Positions 6,556 through 33,958 are shown, numbered from the stretch's first letter. The stretch: DNA of 33,958 bases from an uncultured Verrucomicrobiota bacterium (GCA_964472515.1 CAYYMW010000020.1:1-33958), one strand, 5' to 3'. The notes: generated from the sequence alone by a model not told the origin. Numbers and translations are program-made.

Positions 6556-6562
6556 AGGGGCG

Positions 6563-6889
6563 CTAGCCGCGCAGGTCGGTGAGTTGGCGCGGTTCGATCG
6601 ACCGGTAATTGCGGTACACGGCGATGATCACGCTCAGCGCGACTGCGACTTCCGCCGCCGCCAGCCCCATGATGACCAGCACGGCGATCTGGCCGACGGT
6701 CGGGTCAGGCGCGCTGAAGCGGTTGAGCGCCATGATGTTGAGGGCGGCCGCTGAAAAGATGAGTTCGCCGGCGATGATCATGCCGACGAGCGTGCGTCGA
6801 CGCACCAGGCCGAAGACGCCCACTGCGAAAAGGAAAGCGGCGAGGGCCAGATAGACGCGGGGGTCGTTGTAGAGGCCAGTCAGGTTCAT
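6563..6889 (-). CDS. nuoK: NADH-quinone oxidoreductase subunit K
   Basis: 109-aa three-TM protein (MNLTGLYNDPRVYLALAAFLF..AAEVAVALSVI..). It is the C-terminal in-frame part of six-frame ORF 6563..7285. Its ATG at 6889 overlaps the nuoJ stop as ATGA. Confidence 0.85.
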   Translation of the reverse strand: MNLTGLYNDPRVYLALAAFLFAVGVFGLVRRRTLVGMIIAGELIFSAAALNIMALNRFSAPDPTVGQIAVLVIMGLAAAEVAVALSVIIAVYRNYRSIEPRQLTDLRG

Positions 6890-8860: not shown

Positions 8861-8874
8861 GGGAAGAGGGCGGC

Positions 8875-10005: not shown

Positions 10006-10504
10006 GGCTGGAAGTCCTTCTTCAACGGATGGTAATCGGCGTCGTCCGGCAGCAGAAAGGGCGTCAGGTTGGGATTTCCCAGGAAGCGGATGCCGAAGAA
10101 ATCGTGGGTTTCGCGCTCGTGCCAGTCGGCGCCGGGGAAGACCTTCATGACGGTCGGGAGTTCGGCGGCCGATCTGGGAACCCGGGTGCGGACGGCGGCG
10201 CGCCAGCCAGTCAGCGCATGGAAGTAGTCGTAGATGACCTCCATTTGGTCCTGCTTGATCCAGTCGACGCCGGTGATGGTGTCGAAAGCGAAGCCGTAAG
10301 CGGCCAGCAATTCGGCGGCCGCCACGACATGTTCGGGGGTCACGGTGAAATCCAAGTGGCAACCGCTTGGGCCCAGACGGTCGGAGGGCGCCGGGACAGG
10401 CGCAGGGGGAACCGCCGGCGACGGTGCGGGAGCCGCGGCCGCAGGGGCGACCGGCGCCGGAAACTGATCGGCGAACCGGTGGGCAATGGTTTCCGGGGTG
10501 ACGT

Positions 10505-10508
<4 letters not shown>
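10002..10508 (-). CDS. nuoC: NADH-quinone oxidoreductase subunit C (30 kDa)
   Basis: 169-aa protein starting [12 protein letters not shown]. The NuoC core is [25 protein letters not shown]. The ATG at 10508 overlaps the nuoB stop as ATGA. There is an Ala/Pro-rich N-terminal low-complexity stretch. It is not fused to nuoD. Confidence 0.85.
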
Positions 10509-11005
<497 letters not shown>

Positions 11006-11379
11006 AAAACACCTTTCTTCCAAGCGTAGACGATGACGAGCGAGAGAATCCCCACGAACAAGATCAACTCAACCAGATCCCGGTAGGCAAACTGCCGGTT
11101 GTAGACAAGGGCGACCGGAATCAGGAAGAGCACATCGACCGCGAAAGCCACAAAGATCAAAGCGTAAAGGTAGTAGACCGCGCTATAGCGAATCCACGCA
11201 TCCCCAATCGGGTCCATGCCGCATTCCACGACCTGCTCCGCCTTTTGGGCGGCCTGGCGCGTCTCGCGGGGGGAGAGCAGGGCCACGACGACGAATGGAC
11301 CCGCGGCGAACAGAAGTCCGCCGAAGCAGAAAGCCATGACGTAAAGTAAGTCTATCAGATATGCGTCTTCGAGGATCAT

Positions 11380-15668: not shown

Positions 15669-15834
15669 GGACTTGTGAGATTGCTTTCGATCGTTCGCTG
15701 AACCCTAGGCTAACGAGCAGGCGGTTGTGTGGCGAGCCAAACTTCGCCCCCCTCCGCGGGCACAGGCGAGCCGGTTCCCGCAGCCAGCTTTGTGCTCGCC
15801 TTCCCAGTCGGGGACGGGCTACGTTGGCGGCTGC

Positions 15835-17394: not shown

Positions 17395-17460
17395 CTGGAG
17401 GGGCCGCTGTCCGTGAACCCGCTCAGCGTTTTGCTGCGGCAGTGGGGTTTTGAGCAGGAA

Positions 17461-17482
17461 CATATCTTCATATCAAGATATG
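17461..17482. promoter_or_regulatory. AT-rich 22-bp near-perfect palindrome (candidate operator) upstream of metH
   Basis: CATATCTTCATATCAAGATATG matches its own reverse complement at 20 of 22 positions. It lies about 110 bp upstream of the metH ATG in an otherwise GC-rich leader. A TTGACT hexamer follows at 17491-17496. Confidence 0.3.
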
Positions 17483-17593
17483 ATGATTTTTGACTTGTTT
17501 CGCCCCTGATCACGCGTTACCTTCTTCTCTGCGCGCAGCCGGCCACGCCCGCCCGTAAACGCCCGCGTGGGCCGCTCGCGCCCGACGATCAAC

Positions 17594-20500
17594 ATGACTG
17601 ACTCTACTCTGCATGGCCGGTCTCTGGACCTGGAGCTGCGACGGCGAATTCTCATCCTCGACGGGGCCATGGGTACGATGGTTCAAGCCCTGAACCTGCA
17701 AGAGGCGGACTACCGCGGGAGCATCTATGCGGGCGTTGACCGCTTACTCAAGGGGAATCACGATCTCCTGTGTGTTACCCAACCGGCGATCATCGAGAAG
17801 ATCCACCGCCAGTATCTCGAGGCCGGGGCGGAGATTCTGGAGACCAACACCTTCAACGCGAATGCCATCTCGTTGGCGGACTACGGCTTGGAGAGCCAGG
17901 TGCGCGAGCTGAACCTGGCCGCCGCTCGCGTGGCCCGTCGGGCAGTTGACGCCTTCCGCAGGAACTCGCCGGCGAGCCTGTGTTACGTGGCGGGCGCCCT
18001 GGGGCCCACCAACAAGACCGCGTCGCTTTCTCCTGATGTCAACAACCCTGCCTTCCGGGCGGTGAGCTTCGACCAACTCGTAGCGGTCTATGCCGAGCAG
18101 GCGCGCGCCCTGATCGAGGGTGGGGTGGATCTGCTGCTGGTGGAGACCGTCTTTGACACACTGAACGCCAAGGCTGCCTTGTTTGCCGTCGAACAGACCT
18201 TCGACGCCGTCGGTCGCAAGCTGCCGGTGATGCTCTCCTTCACCATTACGGATCGCAGCGGTCGGACGCTCTCGGGCCAGACGGTGGAAGCGTTCTGGAA
18301 CTCGGTCTCCCATATTCCGGTGCTGAGCGTCGGGATCAATTGCGCCTTGGGTGCCAAGCAGATGCGTCCGTACTTGGAAGAACTCTCGCGAGTGGCGCCG
18401 GTTCCTCTCAGTTGCTATCCCAATGCCGGGCTGCCCAACGCCTTCGGCGGCTTTGACGAGACGCCCGAAACGATGGCTGCCGATCTGCGCGAGTTCGCCC
18501 AACGCGGGTGGCTGAATCTGGTTGGCGGCTGTTGTGGGTCCACGCCTGAGCATATCCACGCCATCGCCGAGGCGGTGCGCGATCTGCCCGCCCGCCACAT
18601 TCCCGAGGTGGAACCGTATCTGCGTCTCAGTGGCCTTGAGCCCGTGACCGTCCGCCCGGACAGCAATTTCCTGAACGTTGGGGAACGAACCAACGTTGCC
18701 GGTTCGCCCAAGTTCGCCAAGCTCATCCTGGCGGGACAATATGACGAAGCCCTGACCATCGCCCGCCAACAAGTCGAGAGCGGCGCCCAGGTGATCGACG
18801 TCAACATGGACGAAGGCATGCTCGATGCGCTGACGGCGATGCCCCATTTCCTGCACCTGATCGCCTCGGAGCCGGAGATCGCGAAAGTCCCGATCATGAT
18901 CGATTCCTCGAAGTGGGAGGTCATCGAAGCCGGCTTGAAGTGCCTCCAGGGCAAGGGGGTGGTCAACTCCATCAGCTTGAAGGAGGGTGAGGAACGGTTC
19001 CTGGCGCAGGCTCGCCGCCTCCGGCGCTACGGTGCGGCGGTGGTGGTCATGGCCTTTGACGAGCGCGGCCAGGCGGACACCTACGAGCGGCGCATCGAGG
19101 TCTGCGGCCGGGCCTACCGGTTGCTGACCGAGCGGGTCGGTTTTCCACCGCAGGACATCATCTTCGATCCGAACGTCCTCACGGTTGGCACGGGCATGGA
19201 GGAGCACGCCAACTATGCGGTCGATTTCATCCGCGCCACCCGTTGGATCAAGGAGAACCTGCCGCTGGCCAAGGTGAGCGGAGGCATCAGCAACGTTTCC
19301 TTCAGCTTCCGGGGCAACAACGCGGTTCGCGAGGCGATGCACAGCGCCTTCCTTTTCCACGCCATTCGAGCGGGCCTGGACATGGGCATCGTCAACGCCG
19401 GCATGCTGGCGGTCTACGAGGAGGTCCCGAAGGACCTGCTGGAGCTGGTCGAGGACGTGCTTCTCAACCGCCGGCCCGACGCCACCGAGCGCCTGATCCG
19501 CTTCGCCGATTCCCTCAAACAACAGGGCAAGGCGGTGGAGGCGACGGAGGCTTGGCGGCTCGCACCAGTCGAGGAGCGCCTCTCGCACGCGTTGGTGAAG
19601 GGAATCGTCGATCACATCGACGCTGACACCGAGGAGGCCCGCCAGAAGCTGGGCTCCCCGCTGGCCGTGATCGAGGGGCCCTTGATGGCTGGGATGAACG
19701 TCGTGGGCGATCTCTTCGGCAGTGGAAGGATGTTCTTGCCGCAGGTCGTCAAGAGCGCGCGGGTGATGAAGAAGGCGGTGGCTTATCTGACGCCGTTCTT
19801 GGAGGCCGGTCAGGCTGCCGGAAGCGGCAAGCAGGGCAGGGTGCTCCTGGCCACCGTCAAGGGGGACGTGCATGACATCGGCAAGAACATCGTTGGAGTG
19901 GTGTTGGCCTGCAACAACTACGAGGTGATCGATCTCGGGGTGATGGTTCCCGCCGAGAAGATCATCGCCGCCGCCCGCGAGCAGGCCGTGGATATCGTTG
20001 GGCTCAGTGGTCTGATCACCCCGTCGCTCGACGAAATGGTGCATGTGGCCGGGGAACTGGAGCGCGAGGGGTTGCCGCTCCCGCTGCTCATCGGCGGCGC
20101 CACCACCAGCAAGGTTCACACGGCGGTCAAGATCGCGCCGGCCTTTCGACAGCCCGTGGTGCATGTGCTCGATGCCAGCCGGGCGGTGCCGGTGGTGGGC
20201 CAGCTTCTCGGCGCGGAAACGAAGGAAGGCTTCGCCGCGAAGAACCGCGAGGAACAGGATCACTTGCGCCAGATGCACGCGGCCCGTGAGACGCCGCTGG
20301 TCTCGCTGGACGCCGCGCGGCAGCAGGCCCCGAAGTTCGACTGGACGGCCTACACACCGCCGGCGCCCGACTTCCTTGGATTGCGACTCGTGGCCTCGCC
20401 GGAAGACGCAGGTGTGGCGAAGGACTTGGCGGTCGTGCCCGTCACGCTTCAGGACTTGGTGCCGCTCATCGATTGGTCCCCGTTCTTCCACGCTTGGGAA

Positions 20501-21328
20501 CTGCGCGGGCGCTATCCATCGATCCTCAACCACGAGAAATACGGGGAGCAGGCGCGAAAACTCTTTGCCGACGCCCAGGCCCAACTGGAGGGCATGGTGC
20601 GGGACCGCTCCCTCAAGCCGCGCGGGATTTACGGTTTCCTGCCGGCCAACCGGATCGGTGACGACGTGGAGGTGTACGCGGATGAGACCCGCACGCGAAC
20701 GGCGGCCCAATTCCACTTCCTCCGCCAGCAGACCGCCAAACCACAAGGGCAGACCTACGCGAGCCTGGCTGATTTCGTTGCCGGCCGAGGCGCTGGTGAG
20801 CCGGTGCGTGACTACCTGGGCTTCTTCGCGGTAAGCACCGGGTTCGGTTTGGATGTGTTGCGCGAGCGCTTCAAGGCCGACCACGATGACTATCAGGCGA
20901 TCATGGCCGAGGCGCTGGCGGATCGTCTGGCCGAGGCGTTTGCCGAGTATCTTCACCGACGTGCCCGTCAAGACTGGGGTTACGGCCGGGCCGAAGGCCT
21001 CACCAACGAGCAACTCATCGCCGAGGAATACCGGGGGATTCGTCCCGCCGCCGGGTACCCGGCCTGTCCCGATCACACCGAGAAACGCACCCTCTGGTCG
21101 CTGCTATCCATCGAGCAACGCACGGGCATCAAGCTGACGGAGAACGGCGCCATGTGGCCGGGCAGCAGTGTCTCGGGGCTGTACTTCTCGCATCCGGAGT
21201 CCAGGTACTTCGCCGTGGGGAAGCTGGGCCGAGACCAGGTGCTCGACTACCAGCAACGCAAGCAGATGCCCCTGGCCGAAGTGGAACGCTGGCTGGGACC
21301 GTATCTGGGCTATACCCCCGGCAAGTAG
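17594..21328 (+). CDS. metH: Cobalamin-dependent methionine synthase (5-methyltetrahydrofolate-homocysteine methyltransferase), full four-module form
   Basis: N-terminal Hcy-binding module ([11 protein letters not shown]...ETNTF), pterin-binding module, B12-binding module with the [15 protein letters not shown] DxHxxG motif, and a C-terminal AdoMet reactivation domain. Total 1244 aa from ATG 17594. Confidence 0.95.
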
Positions 21329-21346
21329 TCGCGTCGGCTAAACGCA

Positions 21347-21376
21347 CCCCGGTCACCGCGCTGGGCGGTGCCGGGT
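21347..21376. terminator. GC-rich hairpin between convergent metH and the CGS-like gene
   Basis: CCCCGGTCACCGC-gctgg-GCGGTGCCGGG imperfect inverted repeat lying in the 78-bp gap between two convergent stops. No clear U-tract on either strand. Confidence 0.3.
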
Positions 21377-21406
21377 CGGATCAAGCCGCCGGTGGGGGCG
21401 GCCCTG

Positions 21407-22612
21407 CTATATCTTCCGCAGGGCTTGATCGAGGTCATCGATCATGTCCTGGATGTCTTCGAGGCCCAGGGCGATCCGGACCAGGTTGTCGACCATGCCG
21501 ATCGACTTCCGATACTCCGGCGAGTAGTCGAAGAACGACATCGTTGACATCTGGGTGACGAGGCTCTCCGAGCCGCCGAGGCTCGGGGTGATGGTGAACA
21601 ACCGCAACGAGTCTACAAAACGTTGCGTTTCCTTGTTGCCGCCTTTGACCAGGAAAGTGATCATGGAGGCGGAGCCGCGCATCAGCTTGCGCGCGAGGCG
21701 GTAGTCGGGATGCGATTTCAATCCTGGGTACCAGACCTTTTCGACCTTGGGATGCGCCTCCAAGGCCTTGGCCACGGCCAGCCCCGCCTTGTTGTGATGC
21801 TCCATCCGCAACGCGAAAGTCTTCAGCCCTCGTTCGAGCAAGAAGCAGGTGAGGCCGCCGGGAATCGCCCCCACCATGCGCTGCATTTTGTACACCTCTT
21901 CCATCAGCGCGGCGCGCCCCAGGGTGGCACCGGCCAGCAAATCGTTGTGCCCGCCCAGGTACTTGGTTGCCGAGTGGATGACCAAGTCCACGCCGAGTTC
22001 GAGCGGCCTGAGGTTGTAGGGTGTAGCCAGCGTGGAATCGATCATGGTGAGCACGCCTCGCTGGCGTGCCACTTTGGCAATGGCCGGGAGATCCACCATC
22101 CGCAGGTAGGGGTTGGTGGGGGATTCCGTGAAGATGATGTTCGTATTGGGCTGAATGGCGGCCGCCACCGCCTTGGCGGTGGGCTCGACGAGGCTCGTTT
22201 GCACCCCGAGCTTCCCCAGGTAGTTGACGGCGAAATCGCGCGTCTGCCGGTAGCAGTCGCTCGTGAAGATGATGTGCCCGTCCTTCTTCAAGAACGCCAT
22301 GAGGGTCAGGATCACCGCGCTCATACCGGACGAGAACAAGACCGCCCGCTCCGCCCCTTCGATGGCCGCAAGCTTGCGTTCGGTCTCCTGCTGCGTGGGA
22401 TTCCCGTAGCGGCCGTACTCGGCCTCCCGGATGTGGCGGCCTTCTCCTTTGGCCTTCATGTACTCCACCACCTCGGTCATGTTCCCGAAGCAGTAGTTCG
22501 AGGTCTGCACGATCGGGGTGGAGACCGCGTGATGGGCTTTGGCGCGGCGGCTGCGACCGTGGATGGCCAGGGTGGCGGCTCGCCATTCCGGCAGGGTGGA
22601 TTTGGCAGGCAT
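21407..22612 (-). CDS. PLP-dependent Cys/Met-metabolism enzyme, cystathionine gamma-synthase / O-acylhomoserine sulfhydrylase family
   Basis: 401 aa. PLP-lysine motif SATKYLGGHNDLLAG, and clear collinearity with MetB/MetZ (YGRYGNPTQ, GMSAV, ESPTNP). Competing same-strand six-frame ORF 21435..22742 is an Arg/Gly-rich artefact. Confidence 0.85.
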   Translation of the reverse strand: MPAKSTLPEWRAATLAIHGRSRRAKAHHAVSTPIVQTSNYCFGNMTEVVEYMKAKGEGRHIREAEYGRYGNPTQQETERKLAAIEGAERAVLFSSGMSAVILTLMAFLKKDGHIIFTSDCYRQTRDFAVNYLGKLGVQTSLVEPTAKAVAAAIQPNTNIIFTESPTNPYLRMVDLPAIAKVARQRGVLTMIDSTLATPYNLRPLELGVDLVIHSATKYLGGHNDLLAGATLGRAALMEEVYKMQRMVGAIPGGLTCFLLERGLKTFALRMEHHNKAGLAVAKALEAHPKVEKVWYPGLKSHPDYRLARKLMRGSASMITFLVKGGNKETQRFVDSLRLFTITPSLGGSESLVTQMSTMSFFDYSPEYRKSIGMVDNLVRIALGLEDIQDMIDDLDQALRKI

Positions 22613-22642
22613 GGGCGTGCTTTCGCTGGAGAGTGGCTGTGA

Positions 22643-23986
22643 TCAGAGGGCCACGTTGCGTTCCTTCAGTGCCTGGTCGAGCGCCGCTTTGACGGCATCC
22701 ACCCGCGGCGGGAGTTCCACCGGCGTGTTGGCCTGGTTGCACGGGAAATCGAGCGTTCGTTCATGGTAGCGCACCTTGAAGTCCGTGAACTTCAGCCCAT
22801 GGGCCGTGGAGACCACCACGACGCGCTCGGATTTGTCGATCTTCCCGGCCTTGAGCAGCTTGATCAGGGCGGCCAGCGCCACGCCGGTATGCGGGCAATT
22901 GAACATGCCTGTTTTGTCGCCCAACGCCGCGGCGTTGGCCAATTCCTCCTCGGTGGCCTGCTCCACGATCCCGTCGAATTGCTGCAGGACCCGCACGGCC
23001 TTCTCGATGCTCACGGGATTGCCGATCTGGATGGCGCTTGCCAGGGTCTTCTGGGCTTGGATCGGCTCGAACGATTTGAACCCGTTCAGGTAAGCGCGAT
23101 AGAGCGGATTGGCCCGTTCGGCCTGGGCCACGACGATGCGCGGCAGCTTATTCACGACCCCGAGTTCCTTCATCATCATCAACCCCCGGCCCAGGGCGGA
23201 AACGTTGCCCAGGTTCCCGCCCGGGATGATGATGACATCCGGCACCTCCCAGTCGAACTGTTGCACAATCTCGATGCCCACGGTCTTCTGCCCCTCGACG
23301 CGGAGCGAGTTCATGGAGTTGGCGAGGTAGATCGTCTCGTCTTTGGTAATCTCCTGCACCACCTTCATGCAGCCGTCGAAATCGGTGTCCAGCGAGAGCA
23401 CCAGTGCGCCGTTGGCGATGGGTTGCACCAACTGCGCCGTGCTGATCTTGCCGCGGGGCAGCAGCACGATGGACTGGATGCCCGCCGCCGCGCAGTAAAC
23501 CGCCAGCGCGGCTGAGGTGTCTCCCGTGGACGCACAGGCGACCGCCTTGATCGGCGCGCCTTCCGCGATCATCTGCTTCACCTGGGAGACCAACACGGTC
23601 ATGCCGAGGTCCTTGAACGAACCGCTGTGGGTGTTGCCGCACAGCTTCACCCAGAGGTCCTTGACGCCAATCACCCTCCCGAATCGCTCCGCCCAAAACA
23701 GGTTGGTGCCGCCTTCGTAGAGCGACACGATGTTCTCGTCCTTGATCTCGGGCAGCACCCATTCCTTCTTGCCCCAGATGCCGGAGCCGAACGGCCAGGC
23801 GTTGCTCTTGTAACGATCCTCAAAGAGCTTCATCCACGCCACCCCGCTCCGGCGGGCCAGGGCCGTCATGTCGTGCTGGACTTCCAACAGCGACTGGCAC
23901 CGCTCGCATTGGTAGATGATCTTGTTCAGCGGGTAGGTGGCCTTGCACGCAGGGTTAATGCATTGGAAGGAGGCTTGGTAGGGCAT
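22643..23986 (-). CDS. thrC: Threonine synthase-like PLP enzyme with N-terminal zinc-ribbon
   Basis: 447 aa. N-terminal CxxC...CxxC ribbon ([23 protein letters not shown]). ThrC-type PLP lysine region ([12 protein letters not shown]) and a glycine-rich loop ([15 protein letters not shown]). It lies 30 nt upstream of, and is co-oriented with, the CGS-like gene. GGAGA Shine-Dalgarno 8 nt before ATG. Confidence 0.8.
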
Positions 23987-24535
23987 GAAATGGGATCTCC
24001 GGCTGGGGGTGGCGAACGTGCCGCGTGCGGTTCACCCGGAAGGGTGCCGCGCGCGTGCCAAGACAGCAATAGATGGCCGCCTCATGAACCGCAGCATCCC
24101 AATAACCCGTCCTGATATCAATCCTTTTGGTGCCGGCCGTGCAGATCTGACTGGGTGCAAGGCAGCACCTGGGGGGGCGTCCGTGGGCGTCCTGCCAAAG
24201 GCCGGTAGCAGACCAGATCGTGATGTTGCAAGGCCTTGACCGCAAGCAACATAACCGAGAACGGCACCGCCAGAGATGGCTTGCTTCAGCGGGCTGACAC
24301 GCAGCCCTCCCGATCCCCACGCCGCCAGGAAGTTTGGTGGAGCTTCGAGATCGAGGGCGCGGGGCAGGGGAGGGGTGATGAGTCGTCAGTCAGCGCCCGG
24401 TCGCTTCCCGGCTACAAAGCCCTCTGGAAATTGTAAGTGAAAACTCGCACCAGCCATGGTTAAGTACCCGTGTACTAGCTCTGAGACAGTGTTGCGCGGG
24501 TGTGCGGAAGCGACTTTGGCATTCAACTTCTGGCG

Positions 24536-25339
24536 ATGGCTATGATGGAAGTCCTGACAGAAGCGGTCCGGCCGGCGAATCTGCCGTTTACGGCGGTGCT
24601 GGGCGGTTTGGCCATTTACTGGCTGCTCGTGGCGGTCGGCTTGCTGCAATCCGACTGGGGTGGCGATGCGGCGGTGCATGGCGGGCCTGACGCGCACGTC
24701 GATGCTCACGCCCACCTTCACGGGGACGGACTGTCGGGGATGGACGGCGATCTGAGCACCGATGCGGATGTCAGTGGCGATGGGTTGTCGGGCGATGCCC
24801 ATGCGGACGCGCATGCGGATGGCCACGGCGGCGACGCAGACCACGATGCCCACGCGGATAGCGGCCCGGGCCTGCTCACCCAAGTGATGCGCTTCGTCCA
24901 TATGGGGGATGTGCCGGTGATGATCGTGGTCAGCATCCTGGCCTTGTGCGCCTGGATCTTCTCGATGATCGCCAACCACTACTGGACCGGCCATTCCCTT
25001 CCCCGCGTCTTGATCATCCTGGTTCCCGTGCTGTTGCTCAGCGCGCTGCTGACCCGGTATTTGACCCTCCCGCTGGCCGGTTTCTTCCGCGCGTTGAACC
25101 GCGAGTATGAGGAGCATCAGCCCTTGGTAGGACGCACCTGTGTGATCACCACCAGCGAGGTCACCGCCGATTTCGGCCAGGCGCGCATCGAGACCAAGGG
25201 CGCGCCGGTGATCGTCAATGTGCGGGTGTCGGAGGGCGGTCCGCTGCGGAAGCACGACGCCGCGCTGTTGGTGCGCGAAGACCGGCAAAAGGGGATTTTC
25301 TATGTGGTCAAGGTAACGTCGGACAAACTCGAGGTTTGA
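24536..25339 (+). CDS. YqiJ/NfeD-like inner-membrane protein with His/Asp-rich loop and C-terminal OB-fold-like domain
   Basis: An N-terminal NLPF-containing TM helix is followed by a His/Asp-rich repeat segment of about 65 aa, then 2-3 TM helices, then a soluble C-terminal beta-rich tail (VGRTCVITTSEV...IVNVRV...IFYVVKV). The stop overlaps the flotillin gene start. The first ATG is at 24536; the ORF is open from GTG 24500. Confidence 0.65.
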   Translation: MAMMEVLTEAVRPANLPFTAVLGGLAIYWLLVAVGLLQSDWGGDAAVHGGPDAHVDAHAHLHGDGLSGMDGDLSTDADVSGDGLSGDAHADAHADGHGGDADHDAHADSGPGLLTQVMRFVHMGDVPVMIVVSILALCAWIFSMIANHYWTGHSLPRVLIILVPVLLLSALLTRYLTLPLAGFFRALNREYEEHQPLVGRTCVITTSEVTADFGQARIETKGAPVIVNVRVSEGGPLRKHDAALLVREDRQKGIFYVVKVTSDKLEV

Positions 25340-25341
25340 TT

Positions 25342-27417
25342 ATGCTACTATTCGTTGATGTGTTGTTGGGGCTCGGCGGCATGCTGCTGGTCCTGATTCT
25401 GATCGCGGGCGTCATCAGCGTGCTGACCTGCTATCGCAAGGTCGAGCAGGGACGTGCGCTGGTTCGCAACGGCATGGGGGGCACCCGGGTCTCGTTCTCG
25501 GGCATTGTGGTCTTCCCCATCATTCACAAGTGCGAGATCATGGATATCTCGGTCAAGCGGGTGGAGATTGACCGCCAGGGCAAGAACGGCCTGATCTGCA
25601 TGGACAACATGCGTGCCGACATCAAGGTGGCCTTCTTCGTGCGCGTCAACCAGACTCCGGAGGATGTACTCCGGGTGGCTCAGGCCATCGGTTGCGAACG
25701 GGCTTCGAGCCAGGAGGCCATGGTTGATCTGTTCGACGCCAAGTTTTCCGAGGCCCTGAAGACGGTCGGCCGCCAGTTCCAGTTTGTCGACCTCTACAAC
25801 TCCCGGGAGAAACTCAAGGAGGGGATCATCAAGACCATGGGAACGGACCTGAACGGCTTTGTGCTGGAGGACGTCGCGATCGATTACCTGGAGCAGACCC
25901 CGGTCGGCCTGCTCAACCCGGATAACATCCTCGACTCCGAAGGCATCAAGAAGATTACCGAACTGACCGCGACCCAGAAGGTTCTCTCGAACAAGATCGA
26001 CCGCGATCGCGAGAAGACCATCACCAAGCAGAACGTCGAGACCAAGGAGGCGATTCTGGAGATGAACCGGCAGTTGGCTGAGGCGGAGGAGAAGCAAAAG
26101 CGCGAAGTGGCGAGCATCAAGGCTCGCGAGGAAGCGGAGGCCAAGAAGGTGCAGGAAGAGCAGCGGCTGCGTTCCGAGCAGACCCGCATCAGCGTCGAGG
26201 AGGAATTGCAGGTGGCGGAGGAGAACAAGAACCGCCAGATCATCGTGGCGCAGCGCAACAAGGAGCGAACCGATGCCGTCGAGCGGGAACGGGTAGAGAA
26301 AGACCGCCAGGTCGAGGTGACCGAACGCGAGCGGACCGTGTCGCTGGCGCGCATCGCCCGCGACCGGGAGGTCGAAATCCAGCAGAAGGAGATTCAGAAC
26401 GTGATCCGGGAACGGCTCGAGGTCGAGAAGACCGTGGTCCAGGAGCAGCAACGGATCAAGGATACCGAGGCGCTGGCCACCGCCGACCGGGAGAAGAAGG
26501 TGGCCATTACCAGCGCCGAGCGCGAGGCCGAACAAGCCCTCGTCAAGAACATCAAGGCTGCGGAGGCCGCCCGCAAGGCCGCCGAACTCAAGGCCGAGCA
26601 GGACCGTTTCACCATCGTCAAACAGGCCGAAGCCCAGAAGGAAGCGGCCGAGCGACACGCCCAGGTGACGATGATCGAGGCCGAGGCGGCCGAGACCGCC
26701 GCGACCAAGCAGTCCGCCGCCAAGCGGTTGCTGGCGGAGGCCACCTCGGCGGAAGCGGCGGCGGTGGGATTGGGCGAAACCCGCGTCCTCGAGGCCAAAG
26801 CGGCTGCGACCGAAAAGCAGGGCACCGCCGATGCCAAGGTCATGCAGCTGAAGTTCAGTTCCGAGGCGCGTGGTATCACCGAGAAGGCCGAGGCCATGAA
26901 GCTCTTCAGCGGCGTGGGCCGCGAACACGAGGAGTTCAAGCTGCGCCTGAACAAGGACCGCGACATCGAGTTGGCCGAAATCCGCGCCCGGCAGGAGATC
27001 GCCTCCCATCAGGCGGAGGTGATGGCGGAAGCCGTGAAGCACGCGCGCATCGACATCGTTGGCGGCGAGACCCAGTTCTTCGACCGCATCACCAGCGCCA
27101 TCGCCGGCGGCAAGGCCATCGACCGGTTGGTGCAATCGAGCGAGACCCTGACCGACGTGAAGGACACCTTCTTCAACGGTGACCCGGAGCATTTTCAGGC
27201 GCAATTGAGGACCTTCGTGGAGCGCTTCGGTCTCACCAGCGAGGACGTCAAGAACCTCACCATCTCGGCGGCGGTGGGGCAGATGATGGGCCTGGCGGAC
27301 GACGGCAAGACCAAGGGTTTGCTGGGTGGCCTCCTCTCACAAGCAAAGAAGGCGGGCTTGGCGGACAAACTGATCGGTTCGCTCTTGGGAAATGCTGCGC
27401 CTCCCAAGGCGGGTTGA
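25342..27417 (+). CDS. Flotillin-family (SPFH/band-7) protein, long form with extended E/A/K/R-rich coiled coil
   Basis: N-terminal TM, then an SPFH domain (ALVRNGMGGTRVSFSGIVVFPIIHKCEIMDISVKRVEID...), then about 330 aa of E/A/K/R/Q heptad-like repeats. GAGG Shine-Dalgarno 7 nt upstream of ATG 25342. Pairing with an NfeD-like gene is as in yqiJK. Confidence 0.85.
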   Translation: MLLFVDVLLGLGGMLLVLILIAGVISVLTCYRKVEQGRALVRNGMGGTRVSFSGIVVFPIIHKCEIMDISVKRVEIDRQGKNGLICMDNMRADIKVAFFVRVNQTPEDVLRVAQAIGCERASSQEAMVDLFDAKFSEALKTVGRQFQFVDLYNSREKLKEGIIKTMGTDLNGFVLEDVAIDYLEQTPVGLLNPDNILDSEGIKKITELTATQKVLSNKIDRDREKTITKQNVETKEAILEMNRQLAEAEEKQKREVASIKAREEAEAKKVQEEQRLRSEQTRISVEEELQVAEENKNRQIIVAQRNKERTDAVERERVEKDRQVEVTERERTVSLARIARDREVEIQQKEIQNVIRERLEVEKTVVQEQQRIKDTEALATADREKKVAITSAEREAEQALVKNIKAAEAARKAAELKAEQDRFTIVKQAEAQKEAAERHAQVTMIEAEAAETAATKQSAAKRLLAEATSAEAAAVGLGETRVLEAKAAATEKQGTADAKVMQLKFSSEARGITEKAEAMKLFSGVGREHEEFKLRLNKDRDIELAEIRARQEIASHQAEVMAEAVKHARIDIVGGETQFFDRITSAIAGGKAIDRLVQSSETLTDVKDTFFNGDPEHFQAQLRTFVERFGLTSEDVKNLTISAAVGQMMGLADDGKTKGLLGGLLSQAKKAGLADKLIGSLLGNAAPPKAG

Positions 27418-27512
27418 TGGGGCACGCTGACTCATTCCTTGCGCGCCCCCGGCCGAAATTGCCTGCGGCCGGGGGCGTTCTGGCAGGCAATCCCGTTCAC
27501 TGACCCGTCATT

Positions 27513-30500
27513 ATGGCCGACGCCGTTCCGAAAACCGAAGCCGCGGCTCCGCCGTCACCGGAGTCCGTCGCACCCTCCCTTGAACAAGGGACCTACGAGA
27601 TCCTCCGCGCCCGACTGACCAAGCACGGCGCCGATCTACGCGAACGCCTGGCGAAGCTCAACCAGGCGCGCCAGGAGGTCTTCGGCACCATCCACACCTC
27701 GCTCGTCGCCACCGAACGGGTCACGACCCGCAACAATTGCGTGCCGCGCGACATGGTGGCGGTGGATGGGAACCAGTTCCTGTTCGGATACAACGTCCAG
27801 TTCGGGTTGCGCAGCGACATTCAGTTGGCCGACGTCTTCGCCCTCTACGAACACCGGGATCACCATTTTGCCGAGCTCCCGCTCGATGCGTTGTCGGTGG
27901 AGCAGTTCGAGACCGACTTCAAGACCCTCTACCGTTACTACCGCAACACGGTCTTCACCAAGTTCTCCCTCGTTGGCCCCCATCTCTACATGGTCTTCCG
28001 CACGGGCAAGAGCCTGGACGACATCAAGACGTTCAAGTGGCTCTGCCAGGACGGCAAGCTGACCTATCTGGGCAACCGGTTCGACCACGAGTTCAAGTAT
28101 CCCGCCCAGCACGAGTTCGCCTGGACGCGCACCCACCGTGAACTCCACCGCCAGGGCCTCCACCCTCACATTTCGATCGAAGATCGCCTGTTTGTCGAGT
28201 GCATCGGCGGCGACCTGACCATCAAGGTCGAGGACAACACCGACACGGGCGAAGGCATCTACGCCGAACCGGTGGAGCACGTGGACCAGACGCTGGACGA
28301 TGCCGAGATTTTCTACTCCGTGGTCGGTCATCTGGTCCTGCTCAAGATTCGTCCCTACCAGGAGAAGGCGTCCCGGTATTTGGTCTACAACGAGAAGATC
28401 AAGGAAGTGCGCCGCATCGATGCCATCGCCGATGCCTGCGTGCTCCTGCCCGACAGCCAGGGCATCATTTTCCCCTCGGGCTACTACCTGCAGAGCGGCG
28501 AGTTCAAGCTCTTTGACACCGAGCTGAAGGACATGATGTTCTACCGGCGCATCGCGGCGCCCAACGGCGAGGATATCCTGCACGCCTTCCACAACCGCGA
28601 AAGCGGTCACCACGTGCTGCTGTCCTACAACCAGATTGCCCACACGGTCGAAGTACCCATTGTCTGCGGCGGCTTCTCCTTGTTCGAAGACGGCGAGATG
28701 GCCTTGTTTCTGCCCTCCGCCGAGCCCCAGAGGCATCACAGCATCCAGATCTGGCAGACTCCCTACGTGGGTTTGTCCTGGCGGCCGGAGGTCAAGACCG
28801 GGTCCTATCTGGGCAAACTCGGAAACCCCGCGCTCGTCCGCTGCCTGGCCGAATGTCATGAGGTCCTCACCTTGCTGGGCAAGGATGACACCTATGCCGG
28901 GCTGTACCTCGATTTGGTCAAGCAGACCGGCGACCTGATCGATGCTCATTTCTGGCTCGACCGCCCCGAGGCCTTCCAAATCCGGGAGCCGTTGTCGGAG
29001 ATACGCGCCGCCGCCAGCAGCGCGCTCGCCGAATTCGACAAAGTCGTACACCTGCGCCGCAAGGCGGCCGCCGAACTCTCGCGCGTCACCGCCAAAGTCA
29101 CCGAGACGTTGCGCGGGGTTCAGCGCGACCGGTTCGAGGAGATAGGCCGTTTCGTCCAGCGGTTGACCGAACTTCGCAGCCTGCGCGGCGAGCTCATCTC
29201 CCTGAAGGAGGTGCGGTACATCGATGTGGCGGTGCTGGACAAGCAGGAGCAGGAGGTCCGCGCCGCCGGAGACCAGTTGGCTCAGAAGACGGTCGTCTTC
29301 CTGTTGAAGCCGGAGGCGTTGCTTCCCTTCCGGCAACGGGGCGAAGCGCTGCGGGACGCGGTGCCCGGGCTGGCGAAGGCCACCGACGCCCGGCAGCACG
29401 AGGAGCAGCTCAACGCCGCTGCCGCCGATCTTGATCTCCTGGTGCAGACCGTCACCAACCTCAAGATCCAGGACGCCACGGAGTCGACCCGCATCGTGGA
29501 GAACATCTCCTCCCTCTATGTGGTGCTTAACCAGGCGCGGGCCGCCCTCAAGCAGCGCCTCCGGGCGTTGCGCGGCACCGAGGCGGCCGCAGAGTTCGCC
29601 TCGCAGATGCGCATGTTGGACCAGGGGTTGGCCAACTACCTGGATTTGTGCGGCACGCCGGAGAAGTGCGACGAGCACCTCAACCGGTTGCTGGTGCAGG
29701 TGGAGGAACTGGAGGCGCGCTTCTCGGATTTCGACGAATACGTCGTTCAGTTGGCCGAGAAGCGGGGCGCATTGGCCAGCGCTTTCGAGGGACGGAAAGT
29801 GGAGCTTGTCGAGGCCCGCAACCGCCGCGCGAATGCGCTGCTCACGGCCGCGGAGCGCATCCTGAAGGGCATCGCCGGCCGGGCCGGGCAGCTGGCCGGT
29901 TTGGACGAGATCAACGCGTACTTCGCCTCCGATCACATGGTGGAGAAGGTGCGCGATCTCGTGCGCCAATTGCTCGAAATGGGCGACACCGTCAAGGCGG
30001 AGGATCTGCAGACCCGGCTCAAGACGATTCACGAGGAAGCGGTTCGCCAATTCAAGGACCGACAGGAACTCTTCGCCGGCGGGAAGGACGTCATTCAGTT
30101 GGGCAGACATCAGTTCCGGGTCAACACCCAGGAATTGGCGCTGACGGTGGTCCAACGGGGCGAGAACCTCTGCCTGCACGCCACGGGAACGGGCTTCTTC
30201 GAGCCCATCGAAGATCAGGAGCTGCGGTCCGCGCAGAGTGTCTGGAATTTGGAGACTGGGGCGGAGACTCCGGAGGTCTACCGGGGCGAGCATCTGGCCG
30301 GGCACGTGTTCGAGGAGTTCGAGCGGGGGGGAGGCTTGGAGGCGGCGGGCCAGCTCAGCCCGGCGGACTTGGAGGAGAGAGTGCGCGCTTTCATGCTTCC
30401 GCGTTTCCGCGAGGGCTATGTCAAGGGGGTGCATGACTACGATGCCAGTCTCATCCTCAGGGCGTTGCTTGAACTGCATGCGCGGCTTGGGCTCCTGCGC

Positions 30501-32759
30501 TACAGCCCTCGATCCCGCGCTCTGGCGGGTGTCTTCTGGGACCTGTTTCCAGAAGGCGATAACAAGGCTCTGCTGCTGGGCAAAGTGCAGGGTCATGGGA
30601 CCATCGAAAAGCACTTCGAGCATCACAACGCCGCGGAAGCCTGCCAGCCGGAGTTGGAGCGGCTCATCGCCGATTTTGCGAGCCGCACCCGGCTTTTCGA
30701 CGCGGAGTGGGTGCCGGATGCGGCGGAGTATCTGGCCCGCCAGTTGGCGCAGGGGGGACGAACCGTGGTCAGCGCCCAGGCCATGGAGCTTTGCGCCGGC
30801 TTCGAGCGTCACATGCAAACCCAGCGGTTCACGGACGCCTTTCGCGCCGCGCGCCAGGCGGTCGAAAGCGATCCGGTGACGCTCTACACCTTGCTGCGGG
30901 ATTGGCTCCGCGGTTACGTGGGGGTGACGGCGTTGGCTCCCCAGCCGGGCTTCATCGACGAAGCGGCCTGGCTGCTGCTGCGAGGCTCCCGCGTTCCCGG
31001 AGAGACCATCGATGCTTCGGCGGTGCATGAATTGGAGGGGTTGCGTGGGACTCATCCCCGGGTGCAGCAGGGCCGGCTGCGGCTTGACTATCACGATTTC
31101 GTGCGGCGCTTGCGCCATCACGAAAAGGTGGTCTCCCCTCAGTATGAGCGTTGCCAACTGCTCAAGAAGAAGGCCGTCGATGCGGCCGCCGAACGCCTGC
31201 GACTGGACGAGCTCAAGCCCCGCGTGCTGACGACCTTCGTGCGCAACCGGCTGATTGACACCGTCTATCTGCCCTTGGTGGGGGACAACCTCGCCAAGCA
31301 ACTCGGAGCCGCCGGCGAGGCCAAGCGTACGGATCGCATGGGGATGTTGTTGCTCATCTCCCCGCCGGGCTACGGCAAGACGACCCTGGTGGAGTACCTC
31401 GCCAACCGTCTGGGACTCGTCTTCGTCAAGATCAATGGCCCCGCCATCGGCCATCGGGTAACTTCCCTTGATCCGGCCGAGGCCACCAACAGCGCCGCCC
31501 GGGAGGAGTTGGCCAGGCTCAACCTCGCCTTCGAGATGGGCGACAACCTCATGGTCTGCTTGGATGACATCCAGCATCTGAATCCCGAGTTCCTGCAGAA
31601 GTTCATCTCGCTCTGCGACGCCCAGCGGCGCATCGAGGGCGTTTACCAAGGCAAGCCGCGGGCGTACGACCTGCGCGGCCGCAAGGTGGCCATCGTCATG
31701 GCGGGCAACCCTTACACCGAGAGTGGCGAGCGGTTCCGGATTCCGGACATGCTCGCCAACCGGGCGGATACCTACAATCTTGGCGACGTGATCGGCGGTC
31801 ACGAGCAGGTCTTCCAGCTCAGCTATCTTGAAAACGCCGCCGGTTCAAACCCCACGCTGGCCCGGTTGGCGGGCCGCCATCCCAAGGATTTGCACGCGCT
31901 CATCCAATTGGCCACCCAGGGGACACGCGAAGGGGTCGAGTTCGAAGCCCAGTATTCCCCGGAGGAGCTGAGTGAGTTCGTGAACGTGATGCGCAAGCTC
32001 ATGCGCGTTCGGGACGTGGTGTTGCGGGTGAACGAGGCCTACATTCGCTCCGCCGCCCAGGCCGACGCCTACCGCACCGAACCTCCCTTCAGACTCCAGG
32101 GTTCCTACCGCAACATGAACCGGCTGGCCGAGAAAGTCTCCCCGGTCATGAACGATGCGGAAATCGAGGGCCTGCTCCAATCGCATTACCGCAACGAGGC
32201 TCAAACCCTGACCCAAGGGGCTGAGGCCAGTCTGTTGAAGTTCCGCGAACTCAGCGGCGCGCTGACGCCGGCGGAGGCCGGGCGATGGGAGGAGATCAAG
32301 AAGACCTTTCGCAAGAACCTGCTCTTTCGTGCCGGGGACGAGCAGGATCCCGTGGGACAGGTGGTCCGGCAGCTATCCGCGTTCCATGATGGGCTGGATT
32401 CGATTCGCGAGGTGCTGTCCGAGGCCGCCAACCGTCCCGCGCCTCCGCCTGCGCCACTTCCTCCGCCCCCCGCGCCGGTCACGTTGATTGTGGCCCCGCC
32501 TGCGCCTCCGCTCCCGCTCATCCCCCCGGCGACCACCGCCCCTGCGGTTTCGTCCCCCGCGCCGCCCATTTCCGTGAGCGACGGGGTGCGTGAGGTGCGC
32601 ATTACTCCGGAGACGCTTCGAAGAATCTGGGACTTGATCGAGCAGCAGGTCGCCGCCAAGGACGGGCCGGTTTCGTCGGAACCCCAGATGACGGTGCAGA
32701 TGCCGGGAGTCATGAGTACGGGAGAGGCCAGCGGCAAGAACCCTCCGGGCAAGGTCTAG
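27513..32759 (+). CDS. Giant (1748-aa) protein with C-terminal MoxR/AAA_5-type ATPase domain and Pro-rich tail
   Basis: Continuous ORF with gene-like composition. Around nt 31359-31385 there is a Walker A (LLLISPPGYGKTTL). Walker B/DD box is MVCLDDIQHLNPEFLQKF. Sensor-1/Arg-finger region VAIVMAGNPYTESGERFRIPDMLANRADTYNL matches the AAA_5 (MoxR/dynein-like) pattern. The N-terminal ~450 aa is unassigned, the middle is helical, and the C-terminal tail is PAPPPAPLPPPPAP... It lies 95 nt downstream of the flotillin gene on the same strand. Confidence 0.8.
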   Translation: MADAVPKTEAAAPPSPESVAPSLEQGTYEILRARLTKHGADLRERLAKLNQARQEVFGTIHTSLVATERVTTRNNCVPRDMVAVDGNQFLFGYNVQFGLRSDIQLADVFALYEHRDHHFAELPLDALSVEQFETDFKTLYRYYRNTVFTKFSLVGPHLYMVFRTGKSLDDIKTFKWLCQDGKLTYLGNRFDHEFKYPAQHEFAWTRTHRELHRQGLHPHISIEDRLFVECIGGDLTIKVEDNTDTGEGIYAEPVEHVDQTLDDAEIFYSVVGHLVLLKIRPYQEKASRYLVYNEKIKEVRRIDAIADACVLLPDSQGIIFPSGYYLQSGEFKLFDTELKDMMFYRRIAAPNGEDILHAFHNRESGHHVLLSYNQIAHTVEVPIVCGGFSLFEDGEMALFLPSAEPQRHHSIQIWQTPYVGLSWRPEVKTGSYLGKLGNPALVRCLAECHEVLTLLGKDDTYAGLYLDLVKQTGDLIDAHFWLDRPEAFQIREPLSEIRAAASSALAEFDKVVHLRRKAAAELSRVTAKVTETLRGVQRDRFEEIGRFVQRLTELRSLRGELISLKEVRYIDVAVLDKQEQEVRAAGDQLAQKTVVFLLKPEALLPFRQRGEALRDAVPGLAKATDARQHEEQLNAAAADLDLLVQTVTNLKIQDATESTRIVENISSLYVVLNQARAALKQRLRALRGTEAAAEFASQMRMLDQGLANYLDLCGTPEKCDEHLNRLLVQVEELEARFSDFDEYVVQLAEKRGALASAFEGRKVELVEARNRRANALLTAAERILKGIAGRAGQLAGLDEINAYFASDHMVEKVRDLVRQLLEMGDTVKAEDLQTRLKTIHEEAVRQFKDRQELFAGGKDVIQLGRHQFRVNTQELALTVVQRGENLCLHATGTGFFEPIEDQELRSAQSVWNLETGAETPEVYRGEHLAGHVFEEFERGGGLEAAGQLSPADLEERVRAFMLPRFREGYVKGVHDYDASLILRALLELHARLGLLRYSPRSRALAGVFWDLFPEGDNKALLLGKVQGHGTIEKHFEHHNAAEACQPELERLIADFASRTRLFDAEWVPDAAEYLARQLAQGGRTVVSAQAMELCAGFERHMQTQRFTDAFRAARQAVESDPVTLYTLLRDWLRGYVGVTALAPQPGFIDEAAWLLLRGSRVPGETIDASAVHELEGLRGTHPRVQQGRLRLDYHDFVRRLRHHEKVVSPQYERCQLLKKKAVDAAAERLRLDELKPRVLTTFVRNRLIDTVYLPLVGDNLAKQLGAAGEAKRTDRMGMLLLISPPGYGKTTLVEYLANRLGLVFVKINGPAIGHRVTSLDPAEATNSAAREELARLNLAFEMGDNLMVCLDDIQHLNPEFLQKFISLCDAQRRIEGVYQGKPRAYDLRGRKVAIVMAGNPYTESGERFRIPDMLANRADTYNLGDVIGGHEQVFQLSYLENAAGSNPTLARLAGRHPKDLHALIQLATQGTREGVEFEAQYSPEELSEFVNVMRKLMRVRDVVLRVNEAYIRSAAQADAYRTEPPFRLQGSYRNMNRLAEKVSPVMNDAEIEGLLQSHYRNEAQTLTQGAEASLLKFRELSGALTPAEAGRWEEIKKTFRKNLLFRAGDEQDPVGQVVRQLSAFHDGLDSIREVLSEAANRPAPPPAPLPPPPAPVTLIVAPPAPPLPLIPPATTAPAVSSPAPPISVSDGVREVRITPETLRRIWDLIEQQVAAKDGPVSSEPQMTVQMPGVMSTGEASGKNPPGKV

Positions 32760-32931
32760 GCAGACCCGGCGAAGGCTCAACCGCAGGCGGTTGGGACTTG
32801 CGCTACCCGTGGGTGGTTGCCCGGTCTTCCGAAACCAGATCGACTCCTGTCCGGACTCTCCCGGGCCCGCCGACATCCCGCGCTTGAAGTGCGGGTGGCA
32901 ATCAAGGCAAGATGGCCCCGGCAAGTTACTT

Positions 32932-33681
32932 ATGAAGCGACTGCATCTTCGCAACTGGCTTTGGAGTGGTCTGGTGGCGCTCTGCCTTGCTCTTCCCGGT
33001 GTGAACGGCGCCGACGGGAGCAAGAAGCCTCAACGCCAGACGCTTTTTAACAGGCACAATTTCGAAGGGTGGCGAGCCCCCACCGGGGAGTGGGTTGCGG
33101 CTGGCAAGGCGCCGCTGGATTCTGCGGATGCCCGGTTGTTCCAGATCCAACCCGGCGAGGGAATCCTGGTCAATGGTGCGAAGGGCAAGACGGTGGATTT
33201 GAAGACGGAGGCTGAGTATGGGGACGTGCTCGCGCATGTTGAGTTCGTGGTGCCCAAGGGGTCGAACTCGGGGGTGTATTTCATGGGCCGCTATGAGGTT
33301 CAGGTGTACGACAGCTACGGCGTCGCCCAACCGAAGTACAGCGACTGCGGCGGCATCTACGCCAGTTGCAGCGAGCCCAAGCCCGATTGGCCGGGCTGCC
33401 CGCCCAACCTCAACGCGAGCCGGCAGCCGGGCGAGTGGCAAACCCTGGAGGTTCTGTTTCGCGCCCCCCGGTTTGACGCCCAGGGCCGCAAGACGGAGGA
33501 CGCCCGGTTCGTCAAGGTGCTGTTGAACGGCAAGGTCATCCATGAGAATGTCAAGGTGCCCCGGCCGACCTGCTCGGCGGCCTGGCTGGATGAGCAGCCC
33601 AAAGGCCCCCTCATGCTGCAGGGTGACCACGGCCCCGTGGCCTATCGCAACCTTTGGGTCCAACCCACGATGCTCGAATGA
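32932..33681 (+). CDS. Secreted DUF1080 (3-keto-disaccharide hydrolase-like, LamG/concanavalin fold) protein
   Basis: Signal peptide (MKRLHLRNWLWSGLVALCLALPGVNGA). DUF1080 blocks are NSGVYFMGRYEVQVYDSYG and PLMLQGDHGPVAYRNLWVQP. Start set at ATG 32932; the six-frame ORF opens at TTG 32791. Confidence 0.78.
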   Translation: MKRLHLRNWLWSGLVALCLALPGVNGADGSKKPQRQTLFNRHNFEGWRAPTGEWVAAGKAPLDSADARLFQIQPGEGILVNGAKGKTVDLKTEAEYGDVLAHVEFVVPKGSNSGVYFMGRYEVQVYDSYGVAQPKYSDCGGIYASCSEPKPDWPGCPPNLNASRQPGEWQTLEVLFRAPRFDAQGRKTEDARFVKVLLNGKVIHENVKVPRPTCSAAWLDEQPKGPLMLQGDHGPVAYRNLWVQPTMLE

Positions 33682-33958
33682 GGTCGTTCGCTTGCTGGAT
33701 CGGCCTGCTGGCGGTTGGCCTGTACCTCGGTTTGACGGGCGGACTGTTGGCCGCCAGTCGTGGCGAGACAACGTCGAGCGCGTCCGCGCTTCCCCAGATC
33801 GAGCTTTACGGCCGCCAATGCGTGGAACTCCCGGCGTGGGCTCGCCGTCAGGGGCTGGCGTACAGCTTCAACCGGGAAACGGGTCAGATTGTGTTGTCGC
33901 GGAAGGGGGTGCGGCTCGAGTTCGCCGTGGATTCGCGTCGTTCGGTTATCAATGGGAT
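33677..33958 (+). CDS. Secreted hypothetical protein (5' fragment, continues beyond window)
   Basis: The ATG overlaps the upstream stop as ATGA. It has a signal-peptide-like N-terminus (MRSFACWIGLLAVGLYLGLTGGLLAA). The following domain (LAYSFNRETGQIVLSRKGVRLEFAVDSRRSVING) resembles secreted-protein targeting/stalk domains. It is truncated by the window edge. Confidence 0.45.

Follow-up and report, generated by a model that had tools for sequence, protein, structure and literature searches.

A stretch of 33,958 nucleotides from an uncultured Verrucomicrobiota bacterium, hereafter the window, carries at positions 24536-32759 a cassette of three genes that we call g1, g2 and g3. They encode a YqiJ/YuaF-type (NfeD-like) inner-membrane protein of 267 amino acids (g1, 24536-25339), a flotillin-type SPFH protein of 691 amino acids (g2, 25342-27417) and an AAA+ ATPase of 1748 amino acids (g3, 27513-32759). 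All three open reading frames (ORFs) lie on the plus strand as first called in the ORF map, and the ATG of g1 at 24536 agrees with the N-termini of its homologues in alignment. The ATG of g2 lies 2 nucleotides past the g1 stop codon, with a GAGG 9 nucleotides 5′ of it, and 95 nucleotides separate g2 from g3. An earlier reading of this DNA made from its letters alone (the sequence-only reading) had proposed three co-directional genes with these spacers, a divergent left flank and a right-hand gap of ~170 bp, and had named their products as NfeD/YqiJ-like, flotillin and MoxR/AAA_5 ATPase. The ORF map confirms the layout, with a right-hand gap of 172 nucleotides, and the profile comparisons described below confirm the identities.

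The flotillin and ATPase genes of this cassette are reciprocally linked across phyla, and the ATPase is a giant member of the AAA+ superfamily that bears an unusual, strictly conserved Walker B motif. These observations suggest, tentatively, that g3 is an ATP-driven partner of the flotillin scaffold.

Membrane components of the cassette

Hydropathy analysis revealed three hydrophobic segments in g1, at approximately residues 14-39, 119-149 and 150-181. An alignment of the g1 family profile with E. coli YqiJ spans both from end to end (hhalign probability 96.9%, E 1.4e-10), and the C-terminal part of g1, a beta-rich domain of ~85 amino acids, aligns with the YqiJ C-terminus. The Pfam model YqiJ_N, for which g1 alone scores just under the cut-off, matches 18 of 40 homologues, and the NfeD OB-fold domain (PF01957) matches two of the same 40, weakly (E ~2e-3). 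YqiJ and YuaF are counted as NfeD homologues in the SPFH survey of Hinderhofer et al. 2009 (PMC2636767). Between the first two transmembrane segments (TM1 and TM2), residues 40-115 of g1 (24653-24880) form a His/Asp/Gly-rich low-complexity loop, for example HADAHADGHGGDADHDAHAD, and g1 homologues carry DxDxD runs of highly variable length in the same loop. This composition suggests a candidate cation- or polyamine-binding loop.

The flotillin g2 opens with an N-terminal membrane anchor (residues 1-35), continues through a Band_7/SPFH domain (~33-180) and a long helical region rich in Glu, Ala, Arg and Lys, and closes with a conserved C-terminal region. Band_7 was detected (E 5e-10) only when the N-terminal 253 amino acids were scanned separately; the Pfam scan of the whole protein missed it, probably because the helical region biases the composition. 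Against E. coli YqiK, g2 shows 32% identity over 433 amino acids (E 2e-44), and its N-terminal anchor, SPFH/Band_7 domain and long helical region are those of a bacterial flotillin of the SPFH2/YqiK type, the bulk of which is predicted to lie on the cytoplasmic side. A conservation profile of ATPase-linked flotillins (n=66) revealed conservation over the full length, together with an extra conserved C-terminal region of ~100 residues that is absent from YqiK. The Pfam Flot model found no match in C-terminal fragments of g2, and an NCBIfam scan returned no family for g1, g2 or g3.

Reciprocal linkage of flotillin and ATPase genes

An ATPase-seeded genome scan identified relatives of g3 in at least 584 species genomes, and we studied the best 80 loci, which come from Verrucomicrobiota, Planctomycetota, Bacteroidota, Desulfobacterota, Kiritimatiellota, Omnitrophota, Hydrogenedentota and Clostridia. 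Upstream genes were counted in the 63 of these loci where the upstream DNA reaches at least 3.2 kb, representing ~9 phyla. A flotillin gene lies directly upstream of the ATPase gene and co-directional with it in 59/63 loci, where its product is 43-72% identical to g2, and a YqiJ-like gene precedes the flotillin gene in 57/63. The YqiJ-like and flotillin genes are typically 20 nucleotides apart or overlap by 4 nucleotides, and the median gap from flotillin to ATPase gene is 134 nucleotides. Among the four loci without an adjacent flotillin gene, L069 has TonB_C and Uma2-type genes upstream of the ATPase gene, and L021 and L049 have ORFs without a Pfam match there.

The same arrangement is found in more distant relatives (~40% identity). 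In Proteus mirabilis, Pseudomonas fluorescens pQBR103, Streptomyces, Nonomuraea, Deinococcus, Vibrio campbellii and Halomonas, a flotillin gene is directly upstream in 7/7 loci, and NCBI names these pairs "SPFH domain-containing protein / DNA repair ATPase" or "flotillin family protein / DNA repair ATPase". A metagenome scan seeded instead with the flotillin, counting loci with at least 2.5 kb of downstream DNA, found the ATPase gene downstream in 46/47. The linkage is thus reciprocal, spans phyla and is far beyond chance, and what the sequence-only reading had put forward as a candidate cassette proves to be a real one; the result that this reading had named as its refutation, ATPase homologues that never adjoin SPFH/NfeD genes, is decisively contradicted. 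Pairwise identities are also correlated between flotillin and ATPase (r = 0.79) and between YqiJ-like protein and ATPase (r = 0.69).

Beyond clade-specific CesT/PspA/HTH-S24 genes, no further gene family is conserved upstream of g1 homologues or downstream of g3 homologues, and the three genes constitute the minimal unit with conserved gene order. The clade-specific additions are well defined. In 13 Bacteroidota loci (e.g. L023), the three genes are preceded by a CesT_Tir_1 gene (E 4e-54) and a PspA_IM30 gene (E 4e-41), with an HTH-S24 regulator in divergent orientation. On pQBR103 (L082, 84458-105332), the cassette, at locus PQBR_RS00460-00470, comes directly after a yjfI-pspA-like cluster. 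This cluster comprises YjfI, PspA/IM30, rhomboid, DUF2491, DUF350, DUF1190 and glutathionylspermidine-synthase-family genes, and a MvaT/MvaU gene follows the cassette.

Architecture of the giant ATPase

Pfam analysis of g3 identified DUF3686 (E 8e-176), DUF7902, AAA and AAA_5, the last two over their cut-offs. No hydrophobic segment of the kind present in g1 and g2 was found in g3 by hydropathy, and g3 is accordingly predicted to be a soluble, cytoplasmic protein, as the sequence-only reading had held. The family is large and ancient-looking. More than 5049 homologues were retrieved at E < 1e-10, and the DUF3686 propeller domain delimits a compact family that falls into 770 clusters at 50% identity. 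Full-length homologues are 1590-2036 amino acids long, the propeller is at the N-terminus in every one, and ~50% identity is retained across phyla over ~1700 residues.

The region ahead of the AAA+ module, parsed on an AlphaFold model (m53410b903d98), comprises four folded parts after an N-terminal helix at residues 27-57. An all-beta domain modeled as a beta-propeller (residues 60-420, 27690-28772) coincides with DUF3686; block values of the predicted local distance difference test (pLDDT) in this segment are mostly 72-94, and Foldseek matched it to the Elp1 WD40 domain, prolyl oligopeptidase, Ski8, Ycf48 and the clathrin N-terminal domain. The next ~420 residues (432-853, 28806-30071) are modeled as long alpha-helices in a coiled-coil or helical-bundle arm, within which DUF7902 covers residues 601-684. 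A small beta domain (860-898) and then an alpha-helical domain (924-1157) complete the region (residues 860-1157, 30090-30983); a separate scan of residues 859-1149 gave no Pfam match. Propeller and long helices are typical targeting and spacing elements.

The predicted AAA+ module (residues 1246-1480, 31248-31952) combines an alpha/beta core, a pre-sensor-1 beta-hairpin and a lid. Beyond the lid lies a conserved C-terminal helical extension (1483-1640, 31959-32432), delineated from the model and from invariant alignment columns, and then a variable Pro-rich tail (1641-1748, 32433-32756), recognized by composition and C-terminal alignment. Proline makes up 25% of these last 108 residues, in keeping with the Pro-rich tail of the sequence-only reading. 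After the Pro-rich linker, residues 1684-1703 (32562-32621) form a motif, REVRITPETLRRIWDLIEQQ, that is common to verrucomicrobial homologues and probably helical; planctomycete homologues end in another motif, VVNKIP..LNVLQQQF.LMQGWM.P. Such clade-specific C-terminal motifs could be docking helices.

A MoxR-clade module with an Asp-Asp Walker B

The ATPase motifs of g3 are intact. Walker A reads PPGYGKTT (residues 1284-1291), Walker B reads VCLDDIQ with D1351-D1352 at 31563-31568, sensor-1 is N1399 within a GN dipeptide, and R1417 within PDMLANR is the candidate arginine finger. All four are invariant or nearly so in 83 homologues from >10 phyla, and the ATPase site is thus under strong purifying selection. 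Walker B has the form hhhhDD-I-Q in 83/83 homologues, and the canonical DE was never seen. An Asp kept at the position of the catalytic base is unusual among AAA+ ATPases.

Fold searches with the AAA+ module returned CbbQ and NorQ as closest, followed by midasin and dynein, with Vps4 well below the MoxR proteins. The model thus places g3 in the MoxR/dynein clade as a single contiguous module with a pre-sensor-1 beta-hairpin, which upholds the dynein/MoxR-type domain of the sequence-only reading. As MoxR ATPases, CbbQ and NorQ remodel partner complexes that are already assembled. They are nearest to g3 in fold, but sequence identity is only 14-15% and the Walker B of g3 is DD rather than DE. 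Furthermore, CbbQ (with CbbO) and NorQ (with NorD) are proteins of ~260 amino acids that act with a separate VWA-domain adaptor, whereas g3 is 1748 amino acids long, has a propeller and helical arm fused to it, and has no VWA partner.

The flotillin–ATPase junction

The sequence-only reading had seen no terminator-like structure between the genes. In contrast, the g2-g3 spacer contains a GC-rich hairpin on the plus strand (27443-27478), identified by inverted-repeat scan and folding energy, with a 13-bp GC stem, a 10-nucleotide loop and a folding energy of -31 kcal/mol. No inverted repeat in the 10 kb scanned (23900-33958) is stronger. The hairpin has no U-tract and was consequently not flagged by a consensus terminator scan, in which terminator-like sites occurred at background rate. 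Its sequence is not repeated elsewhere in the window, as a REP-like repeat would be.

Hairpins recur at this position in other genomes. Significantly stable hairpins (z < -2) of unrelated sequence occur in 20/41 homologous flotillin–ATPase spacers, among them those of loci L002, L014, L016, L027, L029, L036, L051 and L074. In L027 and L074, a run of six or seven U follows directly 3′ of the hairpin, as in a classical terminator. In addition, small unrelated genes, one to four per locus, interrupt the flotillin–ATPase junction in ~15 loci (e.g. L015 8609-9695, L018 8085-9383, L037 9179-9928, L066 2478-3347 and ~10 other loci). The inserted genes, which include DMP19-like, AbiEii toxin, DUF3784 and esterase genes, are mutually unrelated. 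Given these recurrent hairpins and inserted genes, the flotillin–ATPase junction is a tolerated break point that accepts insertions. For the hairpin at 27443-27478, its structure makes it a candidate attenuator, partial terminator or mRNA-processing/stability element; by attenuation, it probably lowers expression of the ATPase relative to the scaffold.

Genomic context in the window

The region upstream of g1 (23987-24535) lies between g1 and a divergent gene and is the presumed cassette promoter, a designation based on position only since a promoter scan of this region found no sigma-70 consensus. The nearest supported gene on the left is that divergent neighbor, a PALP enzyme that uses pyridoxal phosphate (PLP) (22643-23986, minus strand, Pfam); a minus-strand ORF of 121 amino acids (23955-24320) has no Pfam match. 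On the right, the 172-nucleotide gap leads to a DUF1080-type gene with a likely start at 32932. Long minus-strand ORFs of 618 and 1388 amino acids overlap g2 and g3. These are GC-rich shadows of the two genes, because plus-strand homologues are abundant and conserved minus-strand clusters only lie beneath conserved plus-strand genes.

Farther left, Pfam identified a Cys/Met PLP enzyme (21407-22612, minus strand), metH (17567-21328), a REC-PAS-SpoIIE phosphatase (15727-17394) and a DUF6259/DUF5696 glycoside-hydrolase-like protein (12957-15668, minus strand). The neighbors from 12957 to 23986 are housekeeping and regulatory genes without the character of a defense island. A complex-I/Mrp-like cluster occupies the minus strand at 62-11012, with four Proton_antipo_M subunits (62-1474, 1536-3038, 3046-4827 and 5077-6555), a 4Fe-4S protein (7419-9029), and Complex1_49kDa (8875-10362) and Complex1_30kDa (10002-11012) proteins; as called, the ORFs of these two Complex1 proteins overlap.

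Relation to described operons

The sequence-only reading had taken the arrangement to be undescribed, but Ravi et al. 2024 (mSystems 9:e00847-23, PMC11237479; preprint 2020) had already reported it in full and abbreviated forms. Their operon, which the text describes and Table S3 lists (row ANH61663.1, Dokdonia donghaensis), consists of a CesT/Tir-PspA pair, a YqiJ/YuaF-type 3-TM protein, a Band-7/flotillin and an ATPase with beta-propeller, coiled-coil and AAA+ regions; abbreviated operons without PspA "are more widely distributed". Their description runs to a single paragraph and offers neither numbers nor a structure or mechanism for the ATPase. In its three core genes, the window cassette matches this operon both in gene order and in domain architecture. 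The full form has the CesT/Tir-PspA pair upstream, whereas no PspA or CesT gene adjoins the window cassette, which is therefore an abbreviated form of the published operon. The 13 Bacteroidota loci reproduce the full form, including the divergent HTH-S24 regulator. Beyond Ravi et al., the present analysis contributes the counts of reciprocal linkage, the placement in the MoxR clade, the Asp-Asp form of Walker B and the recurrence of spacer hairpins.

The two-gene operons yqiJ-yqiK of E. coli and yuaF-floT of B. subtilis, of the SPFH2 type (PMC2636767), have the same order and the same tight spacing or overlap as g1-g2. No ATPase gene follows yqiK in E. coli, whereas g3 follows the flotillin gene in the window. 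Hinderhofer et al. 2009 (PMC2636767) describe the two-gene form, and a study of Shewanella SO1376/SO1377 describes the two-gene YqiJK type; the ATPase is mentioned in neither.

Proposed function of the cassette

SPFH proteins form large membrane-attached oligomers, and NfeD-like partners bind them. Our preferred reading, which we hold tentatively and place somewhat short of probable, is that the three genes form one module in which the ATPase would remodel the flotillin/YqiJ scaffold, or clients of that scaffold, in membrane-stress maintenance. The module would work on the cytoplasmic face of the inner membrane. There g2, anchored by its N-terminus, would be expected to form a large oligomeric scaffold on the membrane like other SPFH proteins, with g1 presumably as the usual NfeD-like membrane partner of the flotillin. 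A dedicated MoxR-clade AAA+ machine, g3 would dock on the flotillin/YqiJ assembly via its propeller and helical arm and use ATP to assemble, disassemble, open, reshape or recycle either this assembly or the clients that it holds. Physical contact between g3 and the scaffold, the substrate and the direction of remodeling are points that we infer.

Several lines of evidence are consistent with this proposal. The gene linkage in both directions, the correlated identities, the absence from g3 of membrane segments like those of g1 and g2, the intact ATPase motifs, the propeller and helical arm, and the stable spacer hairpins all speak for one module, and HflK/C with the AAA+ protease FtsH is a published precedent for pairing an SPFH protein with an AAA+ enzyme. 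Kinship of the AAA+ module to CbbQ and NorQ, themselves remodelers of partner complexes, counts in favor of scaffold remodeling. The recurrent linkage to PspA/IM30 and CesT/Tir-like genes fits a role in membrane remodeling or stress, one of the functions that the sequence-only reading had envisaged, and the module may be part of a membrane-maintenance or envelope-stress response, acting with PspA/IM30 in some lineages.

Other observations weigh against the proposal. The ATPase gene has no adjacent flotillin gene in 4/63 loci (L021, L026, L049 and L069), the lengths of flotillin and ATPase do not co-vary (r = -0.11), and the PspA link is confined to a minority of loci. The junction hairpins, together with the genes inserted in ~15 loci, weaken strict co-transcription of g2 and g3, so that tight coupling is well supported for g1-g2 only. 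The usual partner of a MoxR protein, a VWA-domain adaptor, is missing from the cassette, with no VWA match in g1-g3 and no conserved fourth gene. Asp-Asp rather than Asp-Glu in Walker B indicates that g3 may be a slow switch rather than a processive motor. Finally, searches of a literature library for DUF3686, PF12458 and DUF7902 found no paper, and searches pairing "DNA repair ATPase" with flotillin found nothing.

A bolder form of the proposal, which we consider somewhat unlikely, would make g3 the first dedicated ATP-driven assembly/disassembly machine for an SPFH scaffold and a flotillin counterpart of Vps4/ESCRT-III. A MoxR-type ring would grip the flotillin dome with its propeller-tipped helical arms, and would open or recycle the dome under membrane stress. 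The cassette shares with Vps4 and the ESCRT-III/PspA polymers the link of a membrane-remodeling polymer to an AAA+ ATPase that carries an N-terminal domain for targeting, and PspA genes adjoin the cassette in some lineages. However, Vps4 is a classical-clade ATPase with a MIT domain, and the invariant partner in the cassette is flotillin, not PspA.

The roles might also be reversed, as in HflK/C-FtsH, with the flotillin/YqiJ scaffold corralling or gating the ATPase. The scaffold would then not be a substrate; as other MoxR ATPases do, g3 would perform chaperone, extraction or cofactor-insertion work, with its targets among other proteins or complexes in or near the membrane. This alternative draws on the same linkage data (59/63, 7/7 and 46/47). 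The MoxR relatives CbbQ and NorQ have third-party complexes as their targets, FtsH is held within the HflK/C cage, and the beta-propeller of g3 could bind diverse clients. The cassette may resemble HflK/C-FtsH in coupling an SPFH scaffold to an AAA+ ATPase at the inner membrane. The likeness also has limits: FtsH, an AAA+ protease of the classical clade, is anchored in the membrane, and HflK/C forms its cage on the periplasmic side, whereas g3 is predicted to be soluble, belongs by its modeled fold to the MoxR clade and has no protease domain. Moreover, the neighborhood contains no conserved gene for a third-party substrate, and g3 has no membrane anchor by which it could sit within a cage attached to the membrane. 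We judge the reversal of roles unlikely, although present data do not separate it from remodeling of the scaffold by g3.

Very unlikely, in our view, is an anti-phage or conflict system, an option also raised by the sequence-only reading, in which the ATPase would sense infection and flotillin/YqiJ would serve as the membrane effector of abortive infection. Some copies do reside on plasmids or megaplasmids, the distribution across phyla is patchy, toxin-antitoxin or immunity-type genes (AbiEii, DMP19-like) occupy the junction in some loci, L069 has its Uma2-type gene upstream, and the helical region of g3 weakly matches the SMC-like LmuB (E 1.4e-6). Yet a search of PADLOC-DB 2.0 gave no match for g1 or g2 and only weak partial matches for g3 (LmuB on the coiled-coil-like part, and P-loop-only matches), none of them specific, and no homologue was present in IMG/VR viral contigs. 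Pfam scans found no nuclease, protease or pore-forming effector domain, and the neighbors in the window are housekeeping genes (metH, Cys/Met enzymes and complex-I-like genes). The slow evolution of g3 across phyla, with its fixed architecture, is likewise unlike that of rapidly diversifying defense genes.

That g3 is a DNA-repair ATPase merely lying beside a flotillin operon is most improbable: the NCBI and Pfam family names ("DNA repair ATPase" and "ATPase involved in DNA repair") and weak RuvB P-loop matches point that way, but the RuvB and CDC48 matches span ~40 residues around Walker A and fall far under family cut-offs, the modeled fold is a MoxR-clade AAA+ rather than an SMC/Rad50/RecN ABC-type head split by a coiled coil, Pfam detected no DNA-binding or nuclease domain, and the sole conserved neighbors are membrane proteins. 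The name, which we presume to derive from coiled-coil similarity to an SbcC-type COG annotation, is almost certainly misleading for this family.

Implications

Because the arrangement itself has been published, the value of the cassette lies in its function rather than in discovery of the locus. For the assembly and disassembly of SPFH scaffolds and the role of bacterial flotillins, an ATPase that stands almost obligately beside one flotillin subfamily offers a concrete handle. Its substrates, localization and mutant phenotypes are accessible in tractable hosts, including P. fluorescens SBW25/pQBR103, Proteus mirabilis, Streptomyces and flavobacteria. The coupling of ATPase and flotillin spans at least 584 species genomes, and if g3 does act on its scaffold in the manner of Vps4, flotillin microdomains in many bacteria would be actively remodeled rather than passive.

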